From IMG/VR virus record IMGVR_UViG_3300025646_000029, positions 1 to 64,000 of that record: DNA of 64,000 nt, one strand, 5' to 3'. Shown here in pieces: positions 13,322 to 43,449 of this stretch (its first letter is position 1; each line of letters starts with the position of its first letter). The notes under the pieces were generated by a model. That model had not been told where the DNA came from and ran no database searches. It worked only from the letters and a program-made list of their open reading frames with translations. Source of the DNA: a virus. The position numbers and the translations under genes are program-made.

Positions 13322-13347
13322 AAGTTTTTTACAAAGGTTCAAAATAA

Positions 13348-13790: not shown

Positions 13791-13819
13791 ATAACAATTG
13801 CGTGTAATATACAAACTTG
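13791..13819 (+). promoter_or_regulatory. weak promoter-like element upstream of thyX (TTGTTT-17-TAATAT)
   Basis: cttgttttatataacaattgcgtgtaatatac lies in the 160-bp gap between 13668 and 13830. Both hexamers are imperfect. Confidence 0.2.
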
Positions 13820-13829
13820 GGAGTAAATT

Positions 13830-14642: not shown

Positions 14643-14672
14643 TTTTGGTTCATATTTTACACGGAGCGCGCC

Positions 14673-27590: not shown

Positions 27591-27592
27591 AC

Positions 27593-28027: not shown

Positions 28028-29422
28028 ATGGTTTCGCCCTTATATCAAGTGAACTTGAAAAAAGAAGAATCCCGACTGTTGCACACCGTGATCACATCCG
28101 GAGAAGAAATTTATTCGTTGTTGACTGGAATTATCAGCCCAGAAAACTTCTCTGTCACCAATCACAAATTAGTATTTCAGGCAATACAAGATCTTTCGAA
28201 TGAGGGTGTGAATTTAAATCTTCACAATATAGTAACCAGATTAAAAACTTCTGGTTCCGGATTGTCAGAAGAAGAAATAGAAGAGCTTCAAACTCAAGTT
28301 TCTGAGGCCAAGGCAATGACTTCAGAAGAGTGCATCAGCACAGCTCGTTCACTAAGAAACAAACAAATAATAAAAGAATGCGTCCAAAGCCACAAAGAGG
28401 CAATTGAAAATTTATTTCAAACCAGTGTAGAAAGCGACACGGATTCAATATTTTCAATATCAGAAAAATCATTTTTTAAAACAGTAAAACAGTTTTCTAA
28501 TTCCAATGACTCTATAACAGAAATATCAAGTGTCACAAGAGGAATAGTTAACGAGTGGGAAGAAAACCCGTGTCAATTTGTGGGACTGCCAACGCCTTGG
28601 CCGGAATTCAACGATTCAATAGGCGGTGGAATGAGGACAGGAATAACTTTAATTGGAGCAAGATCCGGCATAGGCAAAACCAGCATAGGTGTGGTGTGCA
28701 CTCTATTTTTGGCTAAAAACGGAGTTCCATGCCTTATAATAGACACCGAAATGAGCATTAAAGCTCTACTCCCTAGGTTCATTTCTAATATGAGCAGTGT
28801 TCCAATCAAGAAAATTGAAAACGGACAGTTTGGTAATCTAGACATAGATAAAAATAACGTTTATAAGGCCGTTCAAGAAATTGAAAATATGAACATATCG
28901 CACAAGTCTGTGGCTGGAAAAGAATTTTCGGAAATACTATCTATCATAAGAAGATGGGTACACACGAAAGTTGGAATAAACAAAGAGACAGGAAAAGCAA
29001 ACCAGTGCTTTATAGTTTACGATTATTTTAAAATGATGAACAAAAAAGACGTGGCTAACATGCAGGAGCATGCAGCGTTTGGCTACCAAGTATCGGAACT
29101 AAAAGATTTTCTAGAAATGTACGATATACCATGCATGTCTTTTGTTCAGTTGAACCGCGACGGAATCGCGAAAGAAGATACGGACGTCATTGCCCAATCT
29201 GACAGAATTCTATGGAACGTAAACTCTTTTTCTCTTTTTAAGAAAAAGACACCCGAAGAAATGCATCATGACAACAATGTAAACGGAATCCCAACAAACA
29301 AAGGTAACAGAAAAGTTATAACCTTAAAAGGAAGGTACGGCGGAGAGCATGAGCGTGGCGAACACATTAACTTCTTCTGGAACGGAGAAACGTGCAGCTT
29401 ACAAGAAATACAGTCAAAATAA
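28028..29422 (+). CDS. dnaB: DnaB-like replicative DNA helicase
   Basis: GLPTPWPEFNDSIGGGMRTGITLIGARSGIGKTSIGV (DnaB H1/Walker A block). 464 aa. Confidence 0.75.
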   Translation: MVSPLYQVNLKKEESRLLHTVITSGEEIYSLLTGIISPENFSVTNHKLVFQAIQDLSNEGVNLNLHNIVTRLKTSGSGLSEEEIEELQTQVSEAKAMTSEECISTARSLRNKQIIKECVQSHKEAIENLFQTSVESDTDSIFSISEKSFFKTVKQFSNSNDSITEISSVTRGIVNEWEENPCQFVGLPTPWPEFNDSIGGGMRTGITLIGARSGIGKTSIGVVCTLFLAKNGVPCLIIDTEMSIKALLPRFISNMSSVPIKKIENGQFGNLDIDKNNVYKAVQEIENMNISHKSVAGKEFSEILSIIRRWVHTKVGINKETGKANQCFIVYDYFKMMNKKDVANMQEHAAFGYQVSELKDFLEMYDIPCMSFVQLNRDGIAKEDTDVIAQSDRILWNVNSFSLFKKKTPEEMHHDNNVNGIPTNKGNRKVITLKGRYGGEHERGEHINFFWNGETCSLQEIQSK

Positions 29423-30446
29423 TTACAATGATTTAAACAAAATGGCTCTTGAGGTTGTTGGTTCGGTTTTAAGGTATTATGGAATCGAAAGCTACGATGA
29501 TCCTTCAGAAAATTTTATTAAAATAAAATGCCCGATCCACGGAAGCGACAGCGTTGGTAATTCAATTATCTATAAAAATACAGGAGTATGGCTGTGCTTC
29601 AGCGGTGGGTGTCACAAAAGAAGCGCCAAAACTATAGTTGGGCTAATTTCTTCAGTTATGAAACGTAATGGTTCGTCCGGCTCGTTTGATTCAGTAAAAA
29701 ATTTCTTGCTAAAACTTAGGCAAAACAAAAAAACAAGGATACATCCAGTAAAAAATATACAGATACCGGAAAAGAAACCTTTGTTTTTTGATGAAAAAAA
29801 CATGCCGCCGTGTTCCTTTCCCTCAAATTATTATCTTTCCAAAAGAAGCTTTTCACAAGACACATTGTCTTATTTTGGTGTCGGAGACTGCCAAGAAGGA
29901 ATAATGAAAAACAGAGCTGTTATTCCAGTTAGATATATAGACGGAAGGTACATGGGGTTCTCTGCTAGGTCTCATTTTGACAAATGCTTGCAGTGCAAAC
30001 ATTATCACTCTGTTGATTCTGCTTGTATAAATGCCAGTGACAGAGAAAGCGCCATATCTAAAAAATGGTATCACTCTAAGGGCTTAAGAAAAACCACTAC
30101 TCTTTACAATATACAAAACATAAGACCATCAAGTGCCATTGCAATGGTCGAAGGGCCAAGTTGTGTTTGGAGACTTCATGAATTTGGTATACCAGCTGTG
30201 GCTTGTCTTGGAAAGGATATAGATGAATTACAGCTAAAGCTTTTAGACAGTTTAAACATAAAAAAGATTTTGTTTATGCCAGACTCTGACGAATCTGGTA
30301 AAGAATTCTTGACGAGATTCATAAAAGACTACTATACTAGATATAGTATCTCTGTTGCAAACTTTGGTAATTACAAAGATATAACAGAAATGGACAATGA
30401 ATCTTTGAAAGAAAATATAGTTAAAGTTTGGAACAAAATTTGCTGA
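29349..30446 (+). CDS. dnaG: DnaG-like DNA primase (Zn-binding and TOPRIM domains)
   Basis: Zn-ribbon IKCPIHGSDSVGNSIIYKNTGVWLCFSGGCH. TOPRIM acidic blocks MVEGPSCVWRL and LFMPDSDESGKEF. The start may be at 29349 (RBS ggagag), overlapping dnaB. Confidence 0.7.
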   Translation: MSVANTLTSSGTEKRAAYKKYSQNNYNDLNKMALEVVGSVLRYYGIESYDDPSENFIKIKCPIHGSDSVGNSIIYKNTGVWLCFSGGCHKRSAKTIVGLISSVMKRNGSSGSFDSVKNFLLKLRQNKKTRIHPVKNIQIPEKKPLFFDEKNMPPCSFPSNYYLSKRSFSQDTLSYFGVGDCQEGIMKNRAVIPVRYIDGRYMGFSARSHFDKCLQCKHYHSVDSACINASDRESAISKKWYHSKGLRKTTTLYNIQNIRPSSAIAMVEGPSCVWRLHEFGIPAVACLGKDIDELQLKLLDSLNIKKILFMPDSDESGKEFLTRFIKDYYTRYSISVANFGNYKDITEMDNESLKENIVKVWNKIC

Positions 30447-30472
30447 TTTACAATTAATTTTGGAGGTTTATT

Positions 30473-31195
30473 ATGTGGGTTCATCTCGTTCCAAAGTCTG
30501 AAAATAAAAAAACAGGCCCGATTGCAGTTTCTACAACAGAGGAAGACTCTTGTCCAAAAGAATGCGCGTTTAAAGATGACAAAACTTGTTACGGGAAACA
30601 TTACCCTATAATGTTTCATTGGCAGAAGGTTTCTAGTCACGAACGCGGTGATAATTGGGACCCATTTTGCAAGCGCGTCGAAAAATTTGAAAACAATCAA
30701 TTTTGGAGACACAACCAAATTGGAGACCTACCAAAAGACAAGAATAGTTCAAGTGAAGTCGACGAGATAGACAAAGAAAAAAGCATAAAATTGTTGAAAG
30801 CAAGCTCGCATACAAAAGGGTTTACTTACACACATTATGATGTTATAAATTCAGAACACAATAGAGATGTTGTGAGACAAATGAATAAATCAAGTGGTAT
30901 GACAGTTAATTTGTCTGGAAACGATGTAAATCACGCAGACAAACTGGTAGACCTTGATATAGGCCCAGTTTGTGTTACTTTACCATCTAACACAACAGGA
31001 CAATCACTGCATACCCCAAACGGAAACAGGGTTCTTGTTTGCCCCGAACAGACGGGGAGAACACAAAGCTGTGATACATGTAGACTGTGTGAAAGCAAAA
31101 CCAGGTCGTATATCATAGGGTTTATAGCGCACGGTTCTAAAAAGAAAAAAATGACAGAAAGTATTTTACTACGAGAAAACCAACAGAAAGAGTAA
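30473..31195 (+). CDS. hypothetical protein with Cys clusters
   Basis: SCPKECAF...CY and CDTCRLC. Confidence 0.4.
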   Translation: MWVHLVPKSENKKTGPIAVSTTEEDSCPKECAFKDDKTCYGKHYPIMFHWQKVSSHERGDNWDPFCKRVEKFENNQFWRHNQIGDLPKDKNSSSEVDEIDKEKSIKLLKASSHTKGFTYTHYDVINSEHNRDVVRQMNKSSGMTVNLSGNDVNHADKLVDLDIGPVCVTLPSNTTGQSLHTPNGNRVLVCPEQTGRTQSCDTCRLCESKTRSYIIGFIAHGSKKKKMTESILLRENQQKE

Positions 31196-31199
31196 ATCA

Positions 31200-32048
31200 A
31201 TGCCTTTAGTAGTTTTTTGCGGTGCGAAACAATCAGGAAAATCAACTGCTGCAAAAGCAGTATTTTCTAGTATTGTAGTGGAAAATGGCTTAGTTCCAAA
31301 GCTACAGATGCTAGAAGACGGAAAGTTATTTGCTGTATACAAACAATCAACGGACTCTAAAACAGGAGAGACCAGGCAAGAAGGGTGTTATATAGACCCG
31401 GAAAACATACCGCCTGAAAACGAAGACTGGTTTAGACATTCTTTTGATCCATATGTAAAATGTTTTTCTATAGCAGATGAATTAAAAAATACGGCATGCG
31501 ACCTATTTGGTCTTGATAAAAACGAAATACGCGGCGATAACGACAGCAAAAACAGGGAGTGCCGAATAAGGTGGAGTAACATGCTTTCTCTTTTGTCCGC
31601 AAAGACTAAAAAGACAGTGACCGAAATTTACAAAGATGAATGCAAAAACGAATTAATGACTAACCGTAGATTTCTAGAAGTTTTTGGTACTTTTGTTTGC
31701 AGGCAAATAGCGCCGAATTGCCATGTAAATAGTTGCTCTAGAAAAATAAAAGAGTACCTGGGTGAAGATTCAACAAAGATAGCGTGTATTTCTGACGCAA
31801 GGTTTATAGATGAAATAGAAATCTTGCGAGAAAATTTCGCGGGCAACGTTGTTTTTTATAAACTCACCAGAACAGTAGAAAATTCTTCTGCTGTCAGCGA
31901 GCGACAAAACTTGATTCCAGATTTATATTTTAACAAAGTCATTGACAATACAGATATGAATTTGTATCAAAAGAATGAAGTCGTCTTAAAACATCTTTCT
32001 AAATCCGGTGTACTGAGTTTTGATAACTTAAAAAGGACTTCTGAATGA
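31200..32048 (+). CDS. P-loop NTPase / nucleotide kinase-like protein
   Basis: N-terminal VVFCGAKQSGKSTAAKAV resembles phage dNMP-kinase-type P-loops. No further motifs were verified. Confidence 0.35.
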   Translation: MPLVVFCGAKQSGKSTAAKAVFSSIVVENGLVPKLQMLEDGKLFAVYKQSTDSKTGETRQEGCYIDPENIPPENEDWFRHSFDPYVKCFSIADELKNTACDLFGLDKNEIRGDNDSKNRECRIRWSNMLSLLSAKTKKTVTEIYKDECKNELMTNRRFLEVFGTFVCRQIAPNCHVNSCSRKIKEYLGEDSTKIACISDARFIDEIEILRENFAGNVVFYKLTRTVENSSAVSERQNLIPDLYFNKVIDNTDMNLYQKNEVVLKHLSKSGVLSFDNLKRTSE

Positions 32049-33058
32049 TATGCCCCTATATTAGATCTAGCTCTTTGAACGCTTTTAAAACTTGCCAAAT
32101 GAGATACTATCTAGAATACGTGCTTGGAATGCGAAGCCCTGCTGGAAAACCCGCTACTCTAGGAACTATATTTCATAAAGTTTTTGAAATTAGAGCTTTA
32201 GCAAAAAAAAACCAACAAAACAAAAAGAGTTTTTTTGTTGATGACAATTTAGGTAAACTCACAGTAAAAGAGTCAAAAGACTACAAAAATATTCTAGACA
32301 AGTCTTGGGATTACTACAAAGAAATAGAAACGCACGTAGATCTATTAAAGTCCGACAAAACAAAAATTTTAGGGTGGATCGAAAAAACTTTAAATGACTA
32401 CCCTAATTACGACCCATTTAATATGAATATAGTCGAAGCAGAAATGTTTTTTGACTTTGAAATAAAAAAGCCTTGGGCGGAACAAGAAATAACTATTGCT
32501 GGTGAAACAGTAAAAAATAATCTTAGAATAAAAGGAACCATGGATACCGTAGTTAAATTATCAGACGGTGTTTATGAACTAGTTGATTATAAAACTGGGG
32601 CCAAAAGAAACGATTTTGCAACTGGTGCAGAAAAGAATCTTGAATACCATATGACCCAAGACAAACAGTTGATGCTCTATGCAATAGCATTAAAAGAAGC
32701 ATTTCCGGAAGTAGAACTGATAGTAAGCTTGTTTTGGGTTAACACTGGTGGTATATTTAGCGTCCCATGCGACGAAGAATATCTAAGTAAAGCATGGAAT
32801 ATGCTTGAAAAAGACTATAAAAAAATACTGAAGACCTATACTCCAACTCAACTCGACCCAGAACACAAGGACTGGCGGTGCAAGTATGTGTGCGCTTTTT
32901 CAAGGAAACAAAGTCCTTCTGACAAAAAATCAATTTGTCAAACTTTTAGAGAACGAATAAAAAAAGACGGGTTAGTAAAAGTTACGAACGAATACGGAAG
33001 TATATCAAAGGCTACGTCTTATGGAGACGGTGGCGGAAGAAAAAATACAGGCAAGTAA
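32045..33058 (+). CDS. Cas4-like PD-(D/E)xK exonuclease with a putative Fe-S cluster
   Basis: N-terminal Cys (ICPYIRSSSLNAFKTCQMRYYLEY), GTMDTVVKL...YELVDYKTG (D...E.VDYK motif) and C-terminal CKYVCAF...C cysteines. Confidence 0.65.
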   Translation: MICPYIRSSSLNAFKTCQMRYYLEYVLGMRSPAGKPATLGTIFHKVFEIRALAKKNQQNKKSFFVDDNLGKLTVKESKDYKNILDKSWDYYKEIETHVDLLKSDKTKILGWIEKTLNDYPNYDPFNMNIVEAEMFFDFEIKKPWAEQEITIAGETVKNNLRIKGTMDTVVKLSDGVYELVDYKTGAKRNDFATGAEKNLEYHMTQDKQLMLYAIALKEAFPEVELIVSLFWVNTGGIFSVPCDEEYLSKAWNMLEKDYKKILKTYTPTQLDPEHKDWRCKYVCAFSRKQSPSDKKSICQTFRERIKKDGLVKVTNEYGSISKATSYGDGGGRKNTGK

Positions 33059-34915
33059 ATGATAAACCTACATGTACACTCGAAACACAGCTGGGACTGC
33101 ATATCATCAATAAAAGGCATAGTTCAAGCTGCGGTTGAATACGGACAAGACGCCATAGCTGTTACTGACCACGGCTTGATGAGTGGCGCGATGGAATTGT
33201 TTTTAGAAGCCCGAAAGGCTGGAATAAAGCCCATAATAGGGTGCGAGTTTTACGTCTGCCCACCGGGTATAAAAAAAGAAGATAAAAACAGTGAGTCCAG
33301 AAGACTGAATCATCTAGTTGTTTTGGCAAAAAATCTTGTTGGATATAAAAACCTTATAAAGCTGAACTATATAGCGCACGAAAATTTTTACTACCGCCCA
33401 AGAATAGACGAACAAGCTTTGTTCGAAAACTCGGAAGGACTAATAGTAATAAACGGCCACTTCGATACCAGTGTTCACGACTGTCTATTTTTTAACAGAG
33501 AGATGGCTTCAGCTGCTACAACCGAAGAAGAGTGCTGGCTTTATATACACCCTGAGTGCGAAGATAATGTTCTTAAAATAGTTTCGAGATATCAGGAATT
33601 TTTTGGCGAAGATTTCTATTTAGAGTGCCAAATGTTCGACCAGAAAGACCCGATACAGCAAGTGGCGTCGAAAAAGCTTTTAGAAATATCTAGAAAATAC
33701 AAAATAAACGCGGTCGGTACAGGGGATGCTCATTACATAAAACAAGAAGATGCGATTTTTCATAAAACGTTTTGCGCAATAAAACAAAATAAGAGAGTAA
33801 AAGACCTACCCAGCATAAGCTACTATACAAACGGGTCTTATTCTATAGTTTCAAACGAGCACGCAGCAAAAACCTATTCACCAGAACTGATTGACGCGAC
33901 TCACGAAATAGCGGCAAAAATAGAAGACTTCGACATAACTATTCCAATGGCCATACCTTCTTTTAGTTCAGAAGGGGCGTACAAACCAAAAGAAATTGTG
34001 CGCGACAAATGTATAGAGAAACTAAAGAAACTAGGCCTTCACAACGAAGAGTATATCAAAAGATTAGATTACGAAATAAATGTATTAGAACTTGGTAATC
34101 TGTACGACTACTTTCTTGTGGTAGAAGATTATTGCGAATTCGCACGCAAACAATCAATGCTGATTGGCCCCGGAAGAGGGTCTTCTGGTGGATGCCTGAT
34201 TTCTTATCTGCTCGATATAGTTTCAATAAACCCGATTGAGTATAACCTCAGCTTTGATAGATTCTTTTCTGCAGAAAAAGCTAGGTCGGGATCTATACCA
34301 GACATTGATACTGATTTTCAGTCGTCCAGAAGAGACGAAATCATAAGTTATATACAAAAAAAATACGGAAAAAGAAAAGTTTGCGAGGTTGTTACTTACG
34401 GGAAACTTCAAGCTAAAAATGCCCTCAAAGACGTACTCAGGGCTCACGCTGCTTGTACACCAATGGTAGCAAATATAATAACTAAAAACATACCAGACAA
34501 AGACAAAATATCTGACAAACTCCAAGATTTCTTTGAAGAAACCGGTTCTTCAAGCGTGCTTTATTATTGTTTGAAAAAAGAACCAAAACTTTTGTCCGAT
34601 TATTGCCGTCTTTCAACAAAAGAAGACGGGACGGAAATTTTTGAAGGAGATTACGCCGAATCTTTCATGGTAGCGGTAGGACTAGAGGGCGCTATCAAAT
34701 CATCTTCGAGGCACCCGTCTGCTTTGATCATATCTCCTTATAATATAGACGAAATATGCCCGATGTTATTAGATAAAAAAACAAACCAAATGATAACGGC
34801 CTACGACATGTATTATTTTCCCTATGCGTCTCTAGTGAAATTTGATATTCTTGTTTTAAAATCTCTTGACTGCCTTGCGGAAGTTAATACTTTGTTAAAG
34901 GAAACGGGGTTATGA
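33059..34915 (+). CDS. dnaE: DNA polymerase III alpha (DnaE-type) N-terminal fragment: PHP, palm and thumb
   Basis: PHP motif INLHVHSKHS...AVTDHGLMSGAMELF and HLVVLAKNLVGYKNL. Catalytic PDIDTDF. Ends at the FDILVLKSL (KFDFLGL-equivalent) motif. Confidence 0.8.
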   Translation: MINLHVHSKHSWDCISSIKGIVQAAVEYGQDAIAVTDHGLMSGAMELFLEARKAGIKPIIGCEFYVCPPGIKKEDKNSESRRLNHLVVLAKNLVGYKNLIKLNYIAHENFYYRPRIDEQALFENSEGLIVINGHFDTSVHDCLFFNREMASAATTEEECWLYIHPECEDNVLKIVSRYQEFFGEDFYLECQMFDQKDPIQQVASKKLLEISRKYKINAVGTGDAHYIKQEDAIFHKTFCAIKQNKRVKDLPSISYYTNGSYSIVSNEHAAKTYSPELIDATHEIAAKIEDFDITIPMAIPSFSSEGAYKPKEIVRDKCIEKLKKLGLHNEEYIKRLDYEINVLELGNLYDYFLVVEDYCEFARKQSMLIGPGRGSSGGCLISYLLDIVSINPIEYNLSFDRFFSAEKARSGSIPDIDTDFQSSRRDEIISYIQKKYGKRKVCEVVTYGKLQAKNALKDVLRAHAACTPMVANIITKNIPDKDKISDKLQDFFEETGSSSVLYYCLKKEPKLLSDYCRLSTKEDGTEIFEGDYAESFMVAVGLEGAIKSSSRHPSALIISPYNIDEICPMLLDKKTNQMITAYDMYYFPYASLVKFDILVLKSLDCLAEVNTLLKETGL

Positions 34916-35298
34916 CTGACGACCACTTTAGTACACACTTATCAAAACAACTTGAGTATCACAGAAATTGTGTTGGTTTAGGACTTGTGTGCAAAGAGTT
35001 GTTTTTTCAACTTATAGAGTATGTAATAAATTTTTTCTTAGATTCTCAGGAAGAATGCTGGTTAGACAGCGAGACAACTTCTATATCCAAGATGAAAAAA
35101 ACTGGCTATGGATATAAAATAGGAGAAGAGGAGTATGTATTACAAGTCGAATGCACTTGTTGCGACTACTCAAGATTCTACGAGATAGAAGATCTACAGG
35201 AAGCCGCCAAGTGCTTTATAACAAGATGCTTAGAATGTTCTTTTAAAAGACACGTAAAGGTAGTTCCCTGTGATAAAAAACGAAGACGTAGTTCTTGA
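34912..35298 (+). CDS. hypothetical Cys-rich protein inside the dnaE split
   Basis: 128 aa with CTCCDY...C..C. ATGA-coupled to the dnaE N-fragment. Confidence 0.4.
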   Translation: MTDDHFSTHLSKQLEYHRNCVGLGLVCKELFFQLIEYVINFFLDSQEECWLDSETTSISKMKKTGYGYKIGEEEYVLQVECTCCDYSRFYEIEDLQEAAKCFITRCLECSFKRHVKVVPCDKKRRRSS

Positions 35299-35620
35299 GT
35301 TTGAGCGAGACATGTCTGATAACCCAGATTTCTGGATCGAAAAGTTTTTGAAAAACGCAGACGAAGACGTGGCATTTATAATTGAACGAACCAGGGATAT
35401 AAAAGAAGTTTCTCCCGATGACTCTTTTGATTACGGATTTTTGCTAGGTTTAATGTTGATGTGCAGAATAAATAAAGTTTCAGACTCTGAGACACTTGAA
35501 GAATTAAAAACAAAATTCTGCGCGTACAAAAGGTGGGTGGAGTATCTAGAGCAAGAGACGTGTGAATTAAAACAGAAAAGTAAGGTTGGGAATGCTAACA
35601 TTAGGGCAAATAAGAAATGA
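35270..35620 (+). CDS. hypothetical protein inside the dnaE split
   Basis: 116-aa ORF. Confidence 0.35.
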   Translation: MIKNEDVVLEFERDMSDNPDFWIEKFLKNADEDVAFIIERTRDIKEVSPDDSFDYGFLLGLMLMCRINKVSDSETLEELKTKFCAYKRWVEYLEQETCELKQKSKVGNANIRANKK

Positions 35621-36065
35621 AACTCAAAACTGCACCAGGTGCAATCTAAGAGAAAAGTGCCTGTCTCCAGTTGGAATCGAGGCGTATGGCCGAGACCCGT
35701 TTGTTCTTTTTATTTTTGGAAGCAAAGTAAGCAAAGAATCCGACGGTTTTCAAACAGTTTTGGACGTCACCAGCTTTAATATACTTGAAAATATACAAAA
35801 AGAGCTTCAAGTTGGAATAGCAGTAACTTACGAAACAAAGTGCTATTCGACTAAATCTTACTCGGCTTCTCAAAAAACAAAATGCTCTGGGTATTTCATA
35901 CAAAAGGAAATACAGGCCGTCTCTGCGAAATTAGTTGTTGGTTTCGGAGTAAAAGAAAACAACTTGTTTTCTTGCGACATATATTGCGATACTTACGCAA
36001 AAGTTTTTAATAATGCCAAAAAAACTAAAGATTTGATTAAAAAAATAAAAGAAAGGCTTACTTGA
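35586..36065 (+). CDS. uracil-DNA glycosylase family-4-like protein
   Basis: CTRCNLREKCLSPVGIEAYGRDPFVLFIFGSKVSKESDGFQ matches family-4 UDG motif A, but the GEAPG catalytic loop is replaced by GSKVS. Confidence 0.45.
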   Translation: MGMLTLGQIRNETQNCTRCNLREKCLSPVGIEAYGRDPFVLFIFGSKVSKESDGFQTVLDVTSFNILENIQKELQVGIAVTYETKCYSTKSYSASQKTKCSGYFIQKEIQAVSAKLVVGFGVKENNLFSCDIYCDTYAKVFNNAKKTKDLIKKIKERLT

Positions 36066-36898
36066 TGGTGTGTCAAAACAAAATATGTGTTCTAGATTTC
36101 GAAACTGATAGCTTAGACAACAATTTCAATCAACCCGTTTCTATTGCAGCTGTCATGATAGACGGCAGATCTTTAAAAATATGCGAGAACGGGATTTTTT
36201 ATTCTTTAATATCAAGAATTCCAGATTCCGAAGTAGAAAAGTATGGTCTCTCAAAATTAGACCCAAAGTCAATGTCGATCAACGGCATACGTGAAAGCGA
36301 CCTAGAATCTGCTCCCCCTTTAAAATTAGTGTGGACCAACTTTATAAATTGGGTAAAATATTTTAACCCAAAACCCAGCAAATGGGACGGCCCAATATTA
36401 TCTGGTCATAACCATAAATACGACCGAAAAATAATCGAGAGAATTATGTATGGTACGCATTATGGCCTGAAAATATCCAATCAAAAATCAATTCAATACG
36501 CCCGGTTTTCAAAAATGACAACCGAGGAGCAAAAGGACTACTTTGCTCGAACTGCTACTTTGCAAGAACCATGGAAACTAGGTCCACAATCTGAATTTTT
36601 TCACCCGGGGCTGTATTTAGATTCGCAGGATTACAGCCATATTTTATTTGAAAACACGAGAAACTATAGAAGCATTTCTTTGTCCAACGTGAAGTCGCTG
36701 TTGGGTTTCAAAGACGACGCCGAAATAGATGAACACCATGCTCTAGTCGACACGATGTGGTCCGCTGAGATAATAGTCAGATACATCTCACTTATGAGAC
36801 AGGTTTTAAAAGATGTTGACTTTGAAACTCAAAATAAAACACACTTAGATGTGCACCAACAGCTTAAAAATATACTACAAAACGAAAAGGAAGACTGA
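36062..36898 (+). CDS. DnaQ-like 3'-5' exonuclease (candidate proofreading subunit)
   Basis: Exo I CVLDFETDS and exo III HHALVDTMWSAEI. Confidence 0.6.
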   Translation: MMVCQNKICVLDFETDSLDNNFNQPVSIAAVMIDGRSLKICENGIFYSLISRIPDSEVEKYGLSKLDPKSMSINGIRESDLESAPPLKLVWTNFINWVKYFNPKPSKWDGPILSGHNHKYDRKIIERIMYGTHYGLKISNQKSIQYARFSKMTTEEQKDYFARTATLQEPWKLGPQSEFFHPGLYLDSQDYSHILFENTRNYRSISLSNVKSLLGFKDDAEIDEHHALVDTMWSAEIIVRYISLMRQVLKDVDFETQNKTHLDVHQQLKNILQNEKED

Positions 36899-38502
36899 TG
36901 GTGACAAAAGCTGCTAGCGATAGCAATTTTTATTCATTTGATTGCGGGTGTTCTATACCAATTGACGAAGATGGAGACCCGCAAATAGATTATGAAAATA
37001 TCAACCTATGCTGCAATAAAACATGGAGTACGTACGCAAAGGGGTACACGCGCTCGATTTTTCAGTTAGAAAAAAGACTTGGGAAAGAATGGAGTAAAAA
37101 ACTAAAACCGAAGTCTGTACTAGAATCAGCCGCTTTGATATCCGTCATAAGGCCTGGCACGCTAAATGCAGTTAATGCCGAAGGTAAAAGCTTTTCTCAA
37201 GTTTTTTGCGATAGAAAGAACTCTAACTGGAAGCCAGAAGAGGGCGATAAATTATCGGAAGCGCTAGAGGAAACCTATGGCGTCAATATTTACCAAGAAC
37301 AAACGATGTTTCTTTCTTTTTTGTTTGCTGGATTCGATGGCGACCAGCAAATAAAGCTATTAAAAGGAATAGCGAAGAAAGACGCTGGTTATCTTGCGTC
37401 TTTAAAAGAAGAATTCTTGAATGGTTGTAGTTCAAAAGGGTTGATTACAAACAAACAGGCTCTGGAGGTGTTTTCAAACATAGAGGCAAGCGCCAGATAC
37501 GCCTTTAACAAATCTCACGCAGTTGGGTATGCTAAAACTGGATATTGGACAGCTTGGGTAAAATCACATCTGCCGATTCATTATATATGCGGATGGTTAA
37601 GGCACGCAAAAAATACACCAAAACCAAAAGAAGAAATAAAGGCGATAGTCTCGGAAGCAAATAGATTAGGAGTCACAATTGCACCCCCGAGCTTTAAAAA
37701 CCTACCGGTCACCAATTTCTTTATAAACAAAGAAACAAGCATTATTTATTTTGGAATAGATTCAATCAAAGAGTGCGGTGAAAAAGTGGCCAGCTTGATC
37801 CAAAAAAATATCACAAAACCTCCAACGAGTTTTTTAAATTTTCTAGTTTTTGATTCACAAAACCTTAAAAAAAATAATATAATAAACTTTATACGGGCAG
37901 GGTGTTTCGACTATCTTCAAATCGACAGATATCAGGCTGAGCATGACTACAATAAGTATTCTATGCTCACAAAAGGAGAAAAGAAAGACTGCGTATTGAT
38001 TCAGTCTAAGCTCAATTTAACTAATCTAAAAGACCTATTAAAAAAGGTTTTGGAGCTTAGCGGTAAAGAAGAAAGAATTAAAATTATAAAGTCAATGATC
38101 GAGACTTTTGAAGACAACTTAAAAGATAGCAAAAGAGCTATCATAGAGCAAGAGCGCGAGCTGATAGGTGTGAATATAAGTTACTCTTCTATAATGACAA
38201 ATTCTCAATATTCAGCAACGCATGAATGCGGCGTTATAGACGACTTACCGCCAAATACAAAATGTATCGCGTGTGGAGAAGTCGACGAATATTTTGAAAT
38301 CGAAATAAAAAACGGCAAGATGGCTGGACAAACCATGGCGCGTTTTAAATTAGTTGATGAATCCGGAGAATGCGACTGTGTAGTATTCCCAAAAGAACTA
38401 GACACTTATCAAGGGGCAATATATGAAACTAGCAATGTGATGATCGTTGGATCTACAGGAAATCGTGGTGGACTAATAGTAAATAAAATTTATGAAGGTT
38501 GA
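36898..38502 (+). CDS. dnaE: DNA polymerase III alpha (DnaE-type) C-terminal fragment: fingers, beta-binding and OB fold
   Basis: IPIDED...GYTRSIFQLE (the IPLDD...T.AVFQLES-equivalent), VIRPGT, NIYQEQTMF, RYAFNKSHAVGYAKTGYWTAWVKSHLPIHY and C-terminal OB-like ARFKLVDESGECDCVVFPKE. It starts exactly where the N-fragment stops. Confidence 0.8.
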   Translation: MVTKAASDSNFYSFDCGCSIPIDEDGDPQIDYENINLCCNKTWSTYAKGYTRSIFQLEKRLGKEWSKKLKPKSVLESAALISVIRPGTLNAVNAEGKSFSQVFCDRKNSNWKPEEGDKLSEALEETYGVNIYQEQTMFLSFLFAGFDGDQQIKLLKGIAKKDAGYLASLKEEFLNGCSSKGLITNKQALEVFSNIEASARYAFNKSHAVGYAKTGYWTAWVKSHLPIHYICGWLRHAKNTPKPKEEIKAIVSEANRLGVTIAPPSFKNLPVTNFFINKETSIIYFGIDSIKECGEKVASLIQKNITKPPTSFLNFLVFDSQNLKKNNIINFIRAGCFDYLQIDRYQAEHDYNKYSMLTKGEKKDCVLIQSKLNLTNLKDLLKKVLELSGKEERIKIIKSMIETFEDNLKDSKRAIIEQERELIGVNISYSSIMTNSQYSATHECGVIDDLPPNTKCIACGEVDEYFEIEIKNGKMAGQTMARFKLVDESGECDCVVFPKELDTYQGAIYETSNVMIVGSTGNRGGLIVNKIYEG

Positions 38503-38944
38503 AATATATATGAACGACCAAAATCAAATGATAGATAAATTTAAAGTCACTGGCAACCCGGAAAAAGCCAGAATGGAAATACTGATCAACGACGGCACTT
38601 ACATGACTGTAAATTCATCCAAATGTGGAAATGAATGTGTTATTGAAGTCGGCGACAAGTATTCAAAAACCGGACGAAAGCAAACAACTAAATTTGTTTC
38701 AGATGGTAATTTTGTTAGATTTTTTGATCTATCTTTAGATTCAGAAAGCGACCGTGTAATCCAAACAACTGCTATCACGGGAAGCGATCTTGGAATTAGT
38801 TGTTTAGATTTAGCGATTGAATCCGTTCCGGGTATCATATCCTCTCTTTGTATACCAGAGGGGCATGTTTTTGTAAACAATAACAGGTATGATACACAGT
38901 ACGATGATTTATCTGAAACAGAAGAAAAAACCAAGGACGAATGA
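38492..38944 (+). CDS. hypothetical protein
   Basis: 150-aa ORF. Confidence 0.4.
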   Translation: MKVEIYMNDQNQMIDKFKVTGNPEKARMEILINDGTYMTVNSSKCGNECVIEVGDKYSKTGRKQTTKFVSDGNFVRFFDLSLDSESDRVIQTTAITGSDLGISCLDLAIESVPGIISSLCIPEGHVFVNNNRYDTQYDDLSETEEKTKDE

Positions 38945-39264
38945 CTATGGACTGCGAAGAGTGCGATTATAGAACAAAACTAACTTGTTCCGGTACAGGT
39001 TTGATAAAAGATATTTTGAAGCATACAACAGTTCCCGGGCAAGTAGACAAAACTTCGTTGCGGGTTTCTTTTGTAAGAAGAAGGCAAGACGGAAGCCAAA
39101 CAATAAAAGAAGAAGATCTGGTGACCGTTGTTTTCTGGTCTTCGGCTGCCCAAATAATCAATGATCTAGCAAGTGTAGATCAACACATATATTTGGATAT
39201 GGAAATAAGATCTTCGAAAGAAGGCCTTGTTTTCAAGGCTAAAAGTTTTGAAATCTTAGACTGA
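38941..39264 (+). CDS. hypothetical protein
   Basis: 107-aa ORF with CEECDY near the N-terminus. Confidence 0.4.
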   Translation: MTMDCEECDYRTKLTCSGTGLIKDILKHTTVPGQVDKTSLRVSFVRRRQDGSQTIKEEDLVTVVFWSSAAQIINDLASVDQHIYLDMEIRSSKEGLVFKAKSFEILD

Positions 39265-39278
39265 AACTGGGCGTCCCT

Positions 39279-40901
39279 ATGAAAATTTTAATTGTCAGTG
39301 AATTTACCGGGTTGGGAACCACTGGTTACTCTAATTATTACAAACAAATAGCCAGAGGCCTTCACGATGACGGGCACGAAATTCTTGAGCTGGCTTCTTA
39401 TGGAGACCAAAATAACCCAGCTCACGTATCATATGCAAACAATTGTGATTGGAAAATATTCCTGAATATACCACAAAGAGACGACGACAAGGGTAACTCT
39501 CTTTACAAACAAAGAGAAGAGTCTCATGGGGACGCCAAATTCGGGGCGTGGAATTATGAAAACATAATGCTTGATTTTATGCCAGATACCGTGATTTCAA
39601 TAAGAGACCATTGGTACGACAGGTTTATAATAAACTCTCCGAGCGCAAAGTATACAACTGTAGTTCTTAGTCCAACAGTTGACAGCATGCCGCAGAAATC
39701 AGAGTGGTTAGAAACTTATGGCAAAGCTGACGTTATAACTACCTATAACGAATGGAGCCAAAACTGGCTTAAACAACAATACGCAAGCCGTAACCTAGTA
39801 GAGTTTATATCTCCTTGTGCTGACGATTCTTTGAAAATACTAAATACAAAATTATGCAGGCAAAAACTAGGCCTGCCAACTGATTCAAAAATCGTAGGAA
39901 CAGTCATGAGAAATCAAACAAGAAAAAGATTTCCAGAACTGTTTAAGGCCTTGGCTCAAGTAGATAACTTGTATTTGCATTGCCATACTGGGTACCCAGA
40001 CGATGGATGGGATATGCCAGAATTAATTTTAAGAAACAAAGTGCAAGACAGGGTTTTCTTTACATACAGATGTAAAAGATGCAACGCAGTATCAGCAAAA
40101 CTTTTTTCAGGAAGATCAACGCGTTGTGATAAATGCGGTGGAACAAAAGTGATGCCAAATGCGTCAGTTGGTGTAACAACTGAGGATATGTCTGTTATTT
40201 TTGGCGCTATGGATTTGTATATACAGCCTCACACAGCAGAGGGCTTTGGTATACCAGTTATAGAAGCCGCTAAATGCGGTATCAAATCCGCGAGCACTGA
40301 TTATTCTGCCCAAGAAGATATCATAAGAAGAGTGGGTGGCATTCCAATTCCCCCTTTATCTTTAGAGACAGAAATAGCAACGACAGCCGACAGGGCTACT
40401 ATGAACGTGCAAAAAATAGTAGAAATCCTGTCTGACGAAAATTCTTATCAATACAATAAACAAGATATAAAAGAATTATACGAAAAAAATTACAACTGGG
40501 ATTCAACAATAAAAAAATGGCAATCTCTAGTAAAAAACATAGAGAGCACAAAAACACTTGCCGATAAAAACAAATGGTTTTTAAATTGGTCTCCAGTTGA
40601 CGTTCCTAGTTTAGAAGAAATTCAAAAAATAAATCTAACTAATGAAAGTTATGTAATTTATTGTATTCTGAACGTTGCTCAGTCCCCAGATATCATCGGG
40701 ACTTATCTTCATTGTAAGATCCTAGACGATTTAAATTCTGGAGAAATTTACGTTAAAAGATCTACTGCAACAGGTGTTTCTCCATACAACAGAGAAAACG
40801 TATACAGACATATGCTTCAAATAAGGAATAGGGTTTTGAAATGGGAAGACCTAAGGGTTCAAAAAATAAAAAGACTAGTCCAAGCCCAAAAGAACCGTTA
40901 G
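39279..40901 (+). CDS. GT-B glycosyltransferase (GT4-like) with an internal Zn ribbon
   Basis: N-terminal MKILIVSEFTGLGTTGYSNYYKQIARGLHDDGHEI. C-terminal signature EGFGIPVIEAAKCGIKSAST. CKRCNAVS...CDKCGG. Confidence 0.6.
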   Translation: MKILIVSEFTGLGTTGYSNYYKQIARGLHDDGHEILELASYGDQNNPAHVSYANNCDWKIFLNIPQRDDDKGNSLYKQREESHGDAKFGAWNYENIMLDFMPDTVISIRDHWYDRFIINSPSAKYTTVVLSPTVDSMPQKSEWLETYGKADVITTYNEWSQNWLKQQYASRNLVEFISPCADDSLKILNTKLCRQKLGLPTDSKIVGTVMRNQTRKRFPELFKALAQVDNLYLHCHTGYPDDGWDMPELILRNKVQDRVFFTYRCKRCNAVSAKLFSGRSTRCDKCGGTKVMPNASVGVTTEDMSVIFGAMDLYIQPHTAEGFGIPVIEAAKCGIKSASTDYSAQEDIIRRVGGIPIPPLSLETEIATTADRATMNVQKIVEILSDENSYQYNKQDIKELYEKNYNWDSTIKKWQSLVKNIESTKTLADKNKWFLNWSPVDVPSLEEIQKINLTNESYVIYCILNVAQSPDIIGTYLHCKILDDLNSGEIYVKRSTATGVSPYNRENVYRHMLQIRNRVLKWEDLRVQKIKRLVQAQKNR

Positions 40902-41041
40902 AGCCAGAAATAGCCGACAAAGAGAAGCAGCTCAGATTGATTTATGATTTTGCCTCTTATTTATCAGACAGACACCCAGTAAAAACAGATCGTTATTTAG
41001 AACTACTGAGGAATTTTTTAGAAATAAAAGGTGTTTCATGA
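40841..41041 (+). CDS. small AT-hook-like DNA-binding protein
   Basis: MGRPKGSKNKK (an AT-hook GRP core) followed by a short helical tail. Confidence 0.35.
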   Translation: MGRPKGSKNKKTSPSPKEPLEPEIADKEKQLRLIYDFASYLSDRHPVKTDRYLELLRNFLEIKGVS

Positions 41042-41889
41042 AACCATTTGTGATGCTTCTTGTGGACAACACTGATCCTTGGTTTGGATTCATGTCTTCC
41101 GTGTTCGAATACAGATTAAAAGAAATGGACGTAAAGTATTTGACGTCTACTAAGACAAAGGCGCCTGTTTTTGAGTTTGATCCGGAAGAAGTAACTCATG
41201 TAATTCAATGTGTACCTTCAAAGGAATTAACAACAATTCCAGAGCGGTACACAAATATTGCTGTGACTAACTACAGAAAATCAAAATACGATTACAGCTA
41301 CAGTCTTGTAGATTTTGTCGTCGAAACAAGCGGAACTTACAGTGTTATAAACCCTTATATAAATAACCCCGAAATAAAAAAACGGGCTGCCTTAAAGGCT
41401 GGGTCTATTACTTCAAAAATTGGAATCGCGGGGCAACCAGTATTTTATTGCGTTGTCAGGGACTCGAATCAATACAGAACTGAAGAGGTTCTTTTTGAAC
41501 TACAAAAAATAAAGGACTCGCGCAAACGCGAGTTTATCGTCGAGGCGCTTGTTGTAGTTATTTCTGAAACGGCTGACGCCGAATTTGTAAAAAAAAGATT
41601 TACAGATCTAAAACAAGAACTTGAAATCGACTGTTATATTGTGTTCGTTGAAAATCAAAACGAAACAGACATAGCTCTTTTTCATTTCGGTTTTACAGAA
41701 TTCGAAGACAAAAACTGGTTTGGTTATAGTTATGATAATTTTATTTATAACAGAGAAGTCGTATCCAGTCAAGAATTTGTAGACTTGATAAATTATAACA
41801 CAAACTTTCGAAGTGCCGGAAATGACAACATAAAAACATTCGTAGAGCAAATAAAAAACGGCGTTAACTTTAAAACATCAATTTTTTAA
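41038..41889 (+). CDS. hypothetical protein
   Basis: 283-aa ORF. Confidence 0.45.
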   Translation: MKPFVMLLVDNTDPWFGFMSSVFEYRLKEMDVKYLTSTKTKAPVFEFDPEEVTHVIQCVPSKELTTIPERYTNIAVTNYRKSKYDYSYSLVDFVVETSGTYSVINPYINNPEIKKRAALKAGSITSKIGIAGQPVFYCVVRDSNQYRTEEVLFELQKIKDSRKREFIVEALVVVISETADAEFVKKRFTDLKQELEIDCYIVFVENQNETDIALFHFGFTEFEDKNWFGYSYDNFIYNREVVSSQEFVDLINYNTNFRSAGNDNIKTFVEQIKNGVNFKTSIF

Positions 41890-41901
41890 CAAGGAAAAAA
41901 A

Positions 41902-42261
41902 ATGAAAGTAGAATATCCCGTTTCCATTGGCGGAAAAACTATTATTGTTTCAGATGAATTAGAAAATGATACAGAGATATTTAAGTTTATTCACCACATG
42001 GAGGAGTTATTCGGAGACACGAAGTGTGAAAGAAACGGGCAGTCTTCGGATAAAGTCAAGATCAACGTTAGAGTTGATTCAGATGAAAACCATTATTACG
42101 AAATAGTCTGCTACGACAGGTCTGCTCCAGAATGCAATTATGCCAAAAGAACATTTGGCGTAAACAAGAAAGGGGGCAACTTGTTTCCCAAAAACAAAGA
42201 CCAAGAGGGCAATTGGAGGCCGTGGAGAAAATATAACCCGGAAACCAAGACAGAAGAATGA
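41902..42261 (+). CDS. hypothetical protein
   Basis: 119-aa ORF. Confidence 0.4.
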   Translation: MKVEYPVSIGGKTIIVSDELENDTEIFKFIHHMEELFGDTKCERNGQSSDKVKINVRVDSDENHYYEIVCYDRSAPECNYAKRTFGVNKKGGNLFPKNKDQEGNWRPWRKYNPETKTEE

Positions 42262-43007
42262 TTTCTCAATACAACAAAAATAAAGAAACACTGCGCCTCC
42301 TCACAGGGGGCGCCTGCAACATTGTTTGTTATGGTCCACTAGAGTTTTATTTTAGCGGACTAAAAAAATCTTTTGAATCGGATGATATAAAAGTTTTTGA
42401 TGTCACAGAATCGTTCAATAAATCTAAAGATATCGACATCGAAATGATTCCCTCGGTGTTTATTTGTTTTTCTCCACAAAACGCGTACCACTTTAGTAAG
42501 TATTGCGAAGAAAGAGAAATACCTTTTGTTTACGTTGTTCGCGACTGGCCCAAAACAAATCAACAAGCAGCAAATTTTAGGTCTTTTGTATCAAAAAATC
42601 TAAATTGCAAAGATGTTGTTTTTTACAACAGTCATCATTGTAATTCTTGGGGCTTCGGTGGAACAAACTCAAGTATGGTAGAACCTTGTGTTTCCCAAAA
42701 AATAACAAGTGACGAAAATATTTTTGTAAAACCCCAAGCGACAAAAGAAGAACTGCTCAACGCCATGGCTTCTGGGCTTGTGGTAGTAACAAGCGCCAAT
42801 AATCCAAGCGCGCAACAACTAATAGTGCAAAACCAAAATGGACTGCTTGTTAAAAGCGAGCAAGAAAAAGAATTGGTATTAGAAGCTATCAAGAAATCTC
42901 AAATTGACACAAAAACAATGAGCAAAAACGCAATACAATCAGCTTCAAGAGAATGCTTTTCTTTAAAAGAATTCACAAGTGGGTGGAAAAAAATCCTAGA
43001 AAACTAA
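42258..43007 (+). CDS. glycosyltransferase-like protein (GT-B C-terminal-like)
   Basis: MASGLVVVTSANNPSAQQLIVQNQNGLLV resembles the GT4 nucleotide-sugar-binding block. Confidence 0.4.
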   Translation: MISQYNKNKETLRLLTGGACNIVCYGPLEFYFSGLKKSFESDDIKVFDVTESFNKSKDIDIEMIPSVFICFSPQNAYHFSKYCEEREIPFVYVVRDWPKTNQQAANFRSFVSKNLNCKDVVFYNSHHCNSWGFGGTNSSMVEPCVSQKITSDENIFVKPQATKEELLNAMASGLVVVTSANNPSAQQLIVQNQNGLLVKSEQEKELVLEAIKKSQIDTKTMSKNAIQSASRECFSLKEFTSGWKKILEN

Positions 43008-43008
43008 T

Positions 43009-43449
43009 ATGAAAAAGATACATTTAATAACGAATAACGAATTACCCGAAGAGGGTTTCGAAGTTAAGAGCGTAGGAAGCTACGATTATATAGGAAGTTC
43101 TTATTACAAGTCAAGTGTATCGGAAATATATTGTCCAAAAGGAATAAACTTTATACCCCTAGAAAAAATAAACAGCTTCTTTTCTTTGCTCAAAGATATT
43201 TTGGCGCCCAACGGGTTGATTTCAATCGGTGGAATTGACGCAGAAATGCTTTTAGGGTCTTTTGCAGCCAAGATACACACTGAACAGGTCATTAACAAAT
43301 TTTTGTTCAAAGGTGATTTTACACAGTGGAACTCGCTTCCTTATTATAGAAGCATAAAAAATTCAATGATAAACAATGGTTTATTGGTTACAAACACCAT
43401 AACAGATCCACTTGAAGCAAGGTTCCTAATAAAAGGACAAAAGACTTGA
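43009..43449 (+). CDS. hypothetical protein
   Basis: 146-aa ORF. Confidence 0.4.
   Translation: MKKIHLITNNELPEEGFEVKSVGSYDYIGSSYYKSSVSEIYCPKGINFIPLEKINSFFSLLKDILAPNGLISIGGIDAEMLLGSFAAKIHTEQVINKFLFKGDFTQWNSLPYYRSIKNSMINNGLLVTNTITDPLEARFLIKGQKT

Follow-up and report, generated by a model that had tools for sequence, protein, structure and literature searches.

A DnaE-type DNA polymerase gene split at the palm-fingers boundary in a clade of uncultured large phages

Organization of the split dnaE locus

In a 64,000-nt stretch of viral DNA (IMG/VR record IMGVR_UViG_3300025646_000029, positions 1 to 64,000; this whole stretch is called the window below), the gene for the α subunit of a DnaE-type (family C) DNA polymerase III (Pol III) was divided into two separate genes. 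The locus (33059-38502, + strand) comprised six tightly packed open reading frames (ORFs), with four overlapping ones between the polymerase halves. The window is part of the genome of a large lytic tailed phage. The full genome is probably well over 100 kb, and related contigs reach 100-230 kb.

The first gene, DnaE-N (33059..34915, +, 618 aa), encodes the PHP, palm and thumb of the polymerase. It is followed on the same strand by orfA (34912..35298, 128 aa), a small protein without assigned function, orfB (35270..35620, 116 aa), a small protein with a predicted C-terminal helix, orfC (35592..36065, 157 aa), a degenerate and truncated homologue of family-4 uracil-DNA glycosylase (UDG), and a DEDDh (DnaQ-like) 3'-5' exonuclease (36065..36898, 277 aa). 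The last gene, DnaE-C (36898..38502, +, 534 aa), encodes the fingers, the HhH (beta-binding-domain region) and the OB fold. The mechanical ORF of orfC starts at TTG 35586, while ATG 35592 is the likelier start, as in a near-identical contig (L246, described below); the ATG at 36065 is likewise the likely start of the exonuclease, as called in that contig.

DnaE-N and orfA overlap in an ATGA junction, orfC/exonuclease and exonuclease/DnaE-C in TGATG junctions, and the orfA/orfB and orfB/orfC junctions are 29-nt overlaps. An earlier reading made from the letters alone (the sequence-only reading) had described ATGA or TGATG coupling throughout, which is right for three of the five junctions and wrong for the two 29-nt overlaps. 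It had also counted four ORFs in the insert, correctly, and given the length as 1983 bp, whereas 34916-36897 is 1982 nt.

The two polymerase genes lie in different reading frames and cannot give a single DnaE polypeptide: the first ends with a stop codon at 34913-34915, the second starts anew at 36898, and other genes fill the 1982 nt between them. Every ORF begins with a start codon of its own, preceded by a purine-rich tract resembling a Shine-Dalgarno (SD) sequence, and AAGGAAG precedes the ATG of DnaE-C. The insert is essentially 100% coding, its ORFs overlapping one another, and showed no compositional anomaly. A search for terminal repeats or target-site duplications of the insert gave chance-level pairs only and there were no tandem repeats; promoter-like and terminator-like sites were not in excess over shuffle expectation.

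The two halves make up a complete polymerase

DnaE-N matched Pfam PHP (E=1.2e-37, residues 4-191) and DNA_pol3_alpha (1.4e-61). DnaE-C matched DNA_pol3_finger (1.1e-24) and HHH_6 (8.3e-7), and its OB match was weak (0.004). On phrog_405, DnaE-N covered positions 45-617 of 1190 (E=2e-152) and DnaE-C positions 617-1055 (E=1e-80). On NCBIfam TIGR00594 the respective ranges were 2-573 and 574-1022, with DnaE-N alone scoring 438 bits against a cut-off of 434. When aligned to Taq α, residue 616 of the N-fragment fell on Taq 638 and residue 24 of the C-fragment on Taq 637. Because the halves abut on every model tried and on Taq α, no polymerase sequence is missing. The clean division into two ORFs without loss, as the sequence-only reading had it, was thus borne out, and the ORFs lay exactly where it had placed them. 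Its placement of the break within the fingers domain was not: the alignment puts the break at the palm-fingers boundary, approximately 20 residues past the strand of the third catalytic Asp (KFDIL), corresponding to ~578 in E. coli α numbering.

The catalytic Asp motifs PDIDTDF (D415, D417) and KFDIL (D596) aligned to the palm of Taq α. Among 28 N-fragment sequences, D415, D417, D419 and D596 were invariant, as were H7, D13, H38, E63, H85, H134, D223 and H225 of the PHP domain, and H5 was conserved. These PHP residues align with the metal-ligand positions of Taq and M. tuberculosis DnaE1. DnaE-C carries GYTRSIFQLE and RYAFNKSH, and the FQLE and FNKSH parts were conserved in 26 C-fragments.

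When modelled alone with AlphaFold2 (AF2), DnaE-C reached a pLDDT of 88.1 and a pTM of 0.82, with C-terminal β strands at 455-533. Foldseek matched this model to the Pol III α structures 4iqj, 7pu7 and 3e0d over ~530 columns (TMq up to 0.68). The DnaE-C product (α-C) is therefore predicted with confidence to fold independently and to superpose on Pol III α over its whole length. In a joint AF2 model of both halves the C-half had a pLDDT <50, MAFFT having placed the C-fragment rows onto the N-half, and this model therefore carries no information on the interface.

The N-terminus of α-C displayed an element (aa 11-43; 36928..37026, +) that is specific to the split polymerases, with the consensus F-x-C-G-C-x-h-P ... 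P-x-I ... C-x-x-x-W. Residues F14, C16, G17, C18, P21, P28, C39 and W43 of this element are conserved in split forms. It was present in most split loci, five being without it (L053, L058, L059, L062 and L084), and was absent from Taq α, E. coli α and the related forms that read through the breakpoint (L048, P0133, P0136 and P0153). In the AF2 model it forms a β-hairpin (strands 11-13 and 19-22, pLDDT ~90) with C-G-C at the turn. We speculate that this Cys-bearing hairpin might serve the new N-terminus in docking or stabilisation.

Distribution and phylogeny of the split polymerase

The arrangement is not peculiar to one genome. Contig L246, from another assembly (ENA), was 99.92% identical to window 26898-43969 (17,072 nt); the two differed by 13 mismatches without a gap, and their ORFs were the same. 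The Logan contig L001, with 93% amino-acid identity, displayed the same six-gene architecture. The dN/dS values computed between the window and L001 were 0.068 for DnaE-N, 0.100 for DnaE-C, 0.044 for the exonuclease, 0.285 for orfA, 0.090 for orfB and 0.097 for orfC, and purifying selection acts on all six genes.

The best 120 N-fragment homologues, down to 34% identity and on contigs of up to 190 kb, all consisted of PHP and palm only; most were ~600-670 aa, a few were longer and carried inteins, and two were truncated. Homologues were also sought exhaustively among 1.84 billion cluster representatives (50%-identity clusters); of the nearest 150, 85 stopped at the junction and 57 read through it. 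Stand-alone C-fragments of 510-549 aa were the rule among homologues. At least 525 relatives of the split polymerase were found in IMG/VR by an alignment query; a single-protein query gave no confirmed relative. A metagenome scan with the alignment of the window's subclade returned mostly distant full-length DnaE and one locus of the subclade (L169), and the remainder served as outgroup.

Both the N end and the C start were visible in 139 loci, which were the ones counted. The polymerase was split in 81 of them, always at the same position, and read through in the other 58. DnaE-N and DnaE-C were adjacent and collinear in all 81 split loci. INPHARED contained no near-identical DNA and its best protein matches were 31-36% identical, therefore no cultured member is present in that collection. 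Among the GTDB species-representative genomes nothing exceeded ~33% identity over the full length; it follows that the phage does not occur as a prophage in any sequenced species representative, and no clue to the host was obtained.

A split ORF in a lone metagenomic contig frequently results from a frameshift error, and the locus could also be a decaying pseudogene. The same structure was, however, present in L246, in L001 and in 81 loci from many samples, and the halves are separated by 1982 nt of conserved genes, not by one frameshift. Both halves also have a dN/dS of 0.07-0.10, and their catalytic residues are invariant. We therefore regard the chance of a sequencing or assembly artefact, or of a pseudogene, as practically negligible. 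The sequence-only reading had stated that a contiguous dnaE in close relatives would expose the split as such an artefact. Relatives that are contiguous at this point do exist (L048, P0133, P0136, P0153 and P0155), but they are distinct lineages and point to no assembly error.

The phylogeny was calculated by neighbour-joining (NJ) from a single protein, using 149 N-regions. All of the 100 split sequences fell into one clade in 99 of 100 bootstraps. The five read-through forms named above nested within this clade, and they lay inside the most recent common ancestor of the window and P0053 in 97 of 100 replicates. We regard the split as an ancient state common to a whole clade of uncultured large phages. 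The simplest history, which we hold loosely, would be one fission followed by rare re-fusion. The polarity is held loosely because the tree is NJ only and because the read-through forms lack a relic of the split-specific element.

The same two points favour another history, in which several splits occurred independently, or in which an unsplit form like that of L048, with orfA and the exonuclease upstream, was ancestral and split repeatedly; the nested L048, P0133, P0136 and P0153 have a linker of 43-48 aa without a trace of the CGC element. The break lies at the same residue everywhere, though, the element is mostly common to the split forms, the exonuclease is always in the gap, and the tree unites the split sequences in a single clade (99/100) that encloses the read-through forms (97/100). 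Given the same break, gap content and clade, repeated origin would need many identical events, and we consider it unlikely compared with a single fission.

One relative departed from this pattern within the C-half. In a 49%-identity relative (L244:10501-12936), DnaE-C itself was in two ORFs, one for the fingers and one for HhH/OB, which suggests a further fission or an unrecognised insertion.

Inteins, introns and homing endonucleases

No Pfam intein domain was detected in DnaE-N or DnaE-C of the window. Neither an intein block A (Cys/Ser/Thr start) after the N-extein nor a terminal HN plus nucleophile before the C-extein was present. The non-polymerase residues at the break amounted to ~20 on the N end and ~23 before the fingers alignment of the C-fragment, therefore leaving no room for a canonical N-intein and C-intein.

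Both polymerase halves are frequent intein hosts in the clade. Many N- and C-fragment homologues were 300-400 aa longer and carried the intein or endonuclease domains PF14528, PF14890, PF05203/4 and PF13392; they included the N-fragments P0040, P0042 and P0046-P0050 and the C-fragments P0273-P0275, P0279-P0281, P0284, P0288 and P0289. Intein domains were present in N-fragment homologues of ~1020 aa and C-fragment homologues of ~790 aa. In L048 (IMGVR_UViG_3300042879_003909, 9052-14675), DnaE reads through the window's breakpoint and is fractured instead at FNR/CLDPTT..., followed by a free-standing endonuclease ORF (12703-13590) and then by ...VSN/SHS. L048 is a textbook split-intein 'fractured gene' within the same clade.

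A split intein that ligates the halves after translation, giving a single-chain mature enzyme, is thus a natural idea for this locus: split inteins are classically hosted by DnaE, inteins occur commonly within the clade, L048 is truly fractured, and three fractured DnaE loci have been described (Dassa et al., 2009, PMC2677866). Against it stand the lack of space at either end, of a Pfam intein domain, of block A and of HN plus nucleophile in the window. The short tails are moreover conserved as such throughout the clade, and L048 shows what real intein junctions look like by contrast. Ligation by a split intein is accordingly very improbable. The dismissal of an in-frame intein by the sequence-only reading is supported as well.

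That reading had also dismissed a homing-endonuclease intron. Group I introns with endonuclease ORFs are frequent in phage polymerase genes, and ribosomes are able to bypass a gap in T4 gene 60, and a group I or II intron or another RNA-level element might in this manner restore a dnaE message. A search of 34500-37300 against Rfam (E<=1) was blank except for a chance U4 fragment, and at gathering score no Rfam family was found in the whole 64-kb window, which has no tRNA gene either. No HNH, GIY-YIG, LAGLIDADG or Vsr match for a homing endonuclease was obtained between the window's halves, and none was seen in any relative's insert examined. The insert is fully coding and its ORFs are under purifying selection; in most relatives the insert is ~0.9 kb long and filled by a small ORF and the exonuclease, so that an intron core would not fit. 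The two halves also differ in reading frame, and α-C has its own conserved Met, SD-like tract and conserved N-terminal element. Splicing or bypassing at the RNA level is thus highly doubtful, and the dismissal stands. The locus represents a real, intein-less fission of a complete DnaE.

The exonuclease, orfA, orfB and the gap between the halves

The exonuclease of the window matched Pfam RNase_T (1.6e-8; 35.7 bits against a cut-off of 24) and phrog_192, 'DNA polymerase exonuclease subunit' (3.3e-22), and its best match in PDB was DnaQ 8h18. It did not reach the cut-off of any NCBIfam epsilon equivalog. The Exo I (DxE), Exo II (NxxxD) and Exo III (Hx4D) motifs were all present, and D11, E13, N116, D120, H224 and D229 were invariant in nine diverse orthologues. 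Its earlier assignment as a DEDDh exonuclease is therefore upheld. A role as proofreader is plausible. A second exonuclease of the RNase_T superfamily was observed far from the polymerase (window 5946-6491, +, 181 aa), which was ERI1/KapD-like and not DnaQ-like.

A DEDDh exonuclease gene was located between the halves in all of the 81 split loci, and it ended within 150 nt of the DnaE-C start in 78 of them. No exonuclease was found near dnaE in the 57 outgroup loci. Since the exonuclease stop lies at or overlaps the α-C start in almost all relatives, the two are probably co-translated and the exonuclease is probably a subunit of the same complex. The overlapping stop and start codons suggest coupled translation and matched protein amounts.

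The small ORF after DnaE-N belonged to one of three families, among which there was no detectable kinship (hhalign probability <2%). The orfA family is one of them; it follows DnaE-N in the window's subclade and also in L006, L027, L032, L034, L039, L046, L058 and L085. In L048, orfA (E=5.6e-22) and the exonuclease are located directly upstream of a DnaE that is unsplit at the window's breakpoint. Since the orfA-exonuclease pair stays by the polymerase even when it is unsplit, and the 57 outgroup loci have no exonuclease near dnaE, the pair appears to be a unit linked to this polymerase. No relative of orfA was found in Pfam or PDB. HMM matches of orfB were confined to the window's subclade. 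It displayed a weak DUF6809 match (8.8e-4) under the cut-off and nothing significant in PDB.

The gap varied from 711 to 6849 nt across the split loci, with a median of 903. In most relatives it was ~0.9 kb and held a small ORF and the exonuclease; other loci contained additional cargo. A glutamate-dehydrogenase-like gene was present in L004 (9935-11146), a dCMP deaminase and a peptide deformylase in L006 (9972-13733), and an 863-aa RCC1-repeat protein in L053 (8507-11098). Macro domains were encoded in L169 (3565-6199), together with a GDP-mannose-dehydratase-like gene, and in L245 (11193-12746). L039 (11905-18110) had a six-gene metabolic cluster for a glyoxalase, an aldehyde dehydrogenase, a DDAH-like protein, a class-III aminotransferase, and UDP-glucose-dehydrogenase-like and saccharopine-dehydrogenase-like proteins. 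The gap is therefore a permissive cargo slot; nothing is constant but the split itself and the exonuclease nested in it, in most cases along with a small ORF behind DnaE-N. The sequence-only reading had presented a 2-kb cassette between the halves; the exonuclease in it is indeed constant, but the cassette is not fixed, since the other genes vary and the gap ranges over 0.7-6.9 kb.

The UDG-like protein orfC

By itself, orfC had no match in Pfam, PHROG or NCBIfam, and the cut-offs of Pfam UDG and TIGR00758 were not reached. A word-indexed search with orfC gave one match only, and orthologues were instead gathered from the loci. A profile of eight orthologues matched the family-4 UDGs 4zbx (E=1.8e-12) and 1ui0 (1.8e-8), the match to 4zbx spanning chain residues 6-145 of 194 only; four of the eight orthologues touched Pfam UDG (best 1.9e-6). 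C16, C19, C86 and C100 (alignment A4 numbering) were invariant in the eight orthologues, and the first three aligned with Cys of 4zbx and 1ui0. The spacing of the four is that of the [4Fe-4S] cluster ligands of T. thermophilus UDG. On this profile-level evidence, orfC is taken to be a true family-4 UDG homologue. Its designation as UDG-like in the sequence-only reading thus holds for the family profile, and does not for the window protein searched alone.

At the position of motif A (GEAPG), orfC and its orthologues have variable sequences such as FGSKVS, IGGKVK and FSDTVK, and the region of motif B (HPS/HPA) is missing, the protein ending at the equivalent of about residue 145 of 4zbx. Having lost both motif A and the motif-B region, orfC is therefore probably not a glycosylase. 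The UDGs of L004, L006, L022 and L026 keep GEAPG and HPS/HPA (CYHPSYL or NYHPAYL), and that of L005 passes TIGR00758 (148 bits against 125.3). A UDG-like gene was identified in only 16 of the 81 split loci. By this count a uracil-sensing module, as proposed earlier, is not a general part of the system, and in the window's subclade motifs A and B are lost. By analogy with UDG-fold partners of replicases elsewhere, a structural or reader role for orfC is conceivable.

DNA hypermodification was considered as a reason for a dead UDG, since a dNMP kinase gene and glycosyltransferase genes flank the polymerase; however, ThyX is present (window 13830-14642), and nothing in the window indicates a modified base.

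Proposed working of the two-chain polymerase

The halves co-occur within a replication module ordered RecA - DnaB - primase - dNMP kinase - PD-(D/E)XK nuclease - DnaE-N and, after the gap, DnaE-C - (SSB) - (sigma) - glycosyltransferases. The order from DnaB through primase, dNMP kinase (DNMK) and PD-(D/E)XK nuclease (PDDEXK) to DnaE-N was kept in relatives down to 35% identity.

We propose that an ancient fission divided a DnaE-type polymerase gene between palm and fingers. The DnaE-N product (α-N; PHP, palm and thumb) would supply the three catalytic aspartates, and α-C would supply the DNA-binding modules together with the fingers motifs; judging from their homology to solved Pol III α, these motifs would serve dNTP and template binding. 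Because the active site would be shared between α-N and α-C, the chains must associate non-covalently; neither half is expected to polymerise alone, therefore the enzyme would be a non-covalent heterodimer. Protein or RNA splicing would not be involved. We infer that the two halves are likely to form a working replicase as an obligate non-covalent two-chain enzyme. A two-polypeptide polymerase, as the sequence-only reading had suggested, accordingly appears as the likeliest account, given halves that are conserved together in 81 loci with low dN/dS and invariant motifs. The orfA product, which accompanies the exonuclease, is possibly a further subunit. After the fission, the gap may have turned into a slot that picked up unrelated cargo genes, and in the window's subclade this cargo would be orfB and a family-4 UDG derivative without catalytic motifs that kept its four Cys.

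Several observations weigh against parts of this proposal. The adjacency of exonuclease and DnaE-C is broken in L244, L245 and L169 (0.5-3.2 kb between them), a 160-aa ORF separating the two in L244. No Rosetta-stone fusion of exonuclease with C, or of N with exonuclease, was found among the homologues. As the residues at the PHP ligand positions are all kept, α-N could proofread itself, and the exonuclease need not. The nested read-through forms show no relic of the split-specific element, and the tree is NJ from a single protein, which makes the polarity tentative. Finally, only 64 kb of the genome is visible, therefore another polymerase could sit elsewhere.

The last point also bears on the idea that the halves no longer act as a replicase, α-N being a PHP nuclease or phosphoesterase and α-C a DNA-binding factor while another polymerase, or that of the host, replicates the genome. 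A pairing of a split minimal Pol III α with a family-B replicase is known from jumbo phages (Iyer et al., 2021), and neither a clamp nor a clamp loader was recognised among the window's genes. A role in nuclease action or DNA binding would, however, need neither the Asp triad in N nor the fingers motifs in C, both of which are invariant over deep divergence. The halves are always found together at one locus and in an unchanged order, within a canonical replication module (RecA, DnaB, primase, ..., SSB), and the 64 kb showed no further polymerase gene. Loss of the replicase function is therefore quite improbable, and a two-chain replicase remains the preferred explanation.

A further-reaching version would regard the fission as adaptive, giving a modular replicase of α-N, α-C, exonuclease and small subunit, with metal-dependent docking through the Cys hairpin and, in the window's subclade, a dead Fe-S UDG-fold subunit resembling poxvirus D4. 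The UDG-fold protein would then be a reader of uracil or lesions, or a processivity factor of a polymerase that is apparently clampless. This combination as a whole is doubtful.

Comparison with known split polymerases

The T4-related genes-in-pieces enzymes, namely gp43A/gp43B of the Aeromonas phages 25 and 44RR and NrdA-a/NrdA-b of Aeh1 (Petrov et al., 2010; Friedrich et al., 2007; PMC2988022), appear most like the present case in working. The two pieces of the phage-25 family-B polymerase (PolB), gp43A and gp43B, purify together and have activity, as does the split NrdA of Aeh1 (PMC2988022) with regard to activity. As in the window, an essential replication enzyme is encoded by two neighbouring cistrons that have kept their order and are separated by foreign DNA, without intein or intron. 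However, the T4-related pieces belong to a family-B polymerase and a ribonucleotide reductase (RNR) instead of DnaE, their spacer is a homing endonuclease or untranslated instead of an exonuclease plus cargo without endonuclease, and their splits are confined to a few close phages, whereas the present one is ancient and clade-wide.

Pol III α is also encoded by two genes in the cyanobacterial split DnaE and the metagenomic 'fractured' DnaE (Wu et al., 1998; Dassa et al., 2009, PMC2677866), and fractured genes have both parts at one locus with a gene between, L048 being such a case. These contain a split intein, with the break by FNKSH or elsewhere and, in fractured genes, a homing endonuclease between the parts. 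The window has neither intein nor endonuclease, and its break is at the palm-fingers boundary. In group 2.2 jumbo phages, a minimal Pol III α is split into N- and C-proteins that are predicted to reconstitute the enzyme (Iyer et al., 2021, PMC7824862). That version lacks PHP and the further Pol III α domains, is encoded by distant genes and occurs beside a family-B replicase. The window instead encodes the full DnaE domain set, PHP included, in halves that lie 2 kb from each other within one operon-like block, and no additional polymerase was seen in it. Viral family-C polymerases have been described as organised like E. coli α, with no split mentioned (Kazlauskas and Venclovas, 2011, PMC3201878).

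The pairing of a family-C polymerase with a DEDDh exonuclease resembles the bacterial Pol III core and Gram-positive PolC. PolC carries the exonuclease in frame, as a domain inserted into PHP, and in E. coli dnaQ is unlinked; in the window a separate gene lies between palm and fingers. The small third subunit of the E. coli core (α-ε-θ) offers a loose analogy for orfA. An identity of orfA as θ-like was rejected, no similarity to θ or to any known family being detectable. The genetic tie of a UDG-fold protein to a replicase has parallels in vaccinia D4-A20-E9 and in the UDG-fused family-A polymerases of phages. The UDGs there either have catalytic activity (D4, YerA41 and phiLo) or are fused to the polymerase (Missoury et al., 2025, preprint; PMC3201878), whereas orfC of the window is free-standing, truncated, without both catalytic motifs and absent from most of the clade.

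The fission of DnaE in the window thus belongs with the split or genes-in-pieces polymerases and forms no new category. No published account of this arrangement was found in full-text literature searches, whose incomplete coverage makes this an absence of evidence.

Family-C polymerases are the bacterial replicases and antibiotic targets, and in cells they are single chains or rejoined by inteins. The clade described here would be a natural case in which the catalytic carboxylates and the fingers reside on different proteins, marking the palm-fingers junction as a permissive break point, and it offers a ready system for studying the docking of halves, the recruitment of an exonuclease and the stoichiometric balance of a split enzyme. 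For annotation, a 'truncated' Pol III α on hundreds of metagenomic phage contigs would be half of a complete enzyme. The gap shows how fission makes an essential gene a hotspot for cargo, including auxiliary metabolic genes, and the degenerate Fe-S UDG homologue might represent a new use of the UDG fold that involves no catalysis.

Other genes in the window

Directly upstream of the locus, a dNMP kinase-like gene (31200-32048, +) and a PD-(D/E)XK nuclease gene (32045-33058, +) were identified by Pfam and PHROG matches, and the end of the latter directly adjoins the DnaE-N start codon. A DUF7227 protein (window 30473-31195, +; E=5e-73) is encoded between the primase and the dNMP kinase-like gene, and members of this family were found elsewhere in the replication module of relatives (L002:421-1062, L242:1470-2171).

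In distant relatives DnaE-C is followed by SSB (PF00436). In the window's subclade this slot holds two or three small ORFs without family match (window 38492-38944 and 38941-39264, +), which may be a divergent SSB. Family-1 glycosyltransferases are located just 3' of DnaE-C throughout the clade (window 39279-40901 and 42258-43007, +; L004:15140-17910; L007:12857-17178). Together with the dNMP kinase-like gene they raise the possibility of glycosylation of DNA or of a surface.

The early region of the window contained two YopX-family paralogues and a sulfotransferase-family protein (2719-3210, 4654-5136 and 5133-5789, +). Large unannotated ORFs of 1291, 1020 and 495 aa were located beside the gene for a 2390-aa tape measure protein (56734-63906, -), the length of which implies a very long tail.

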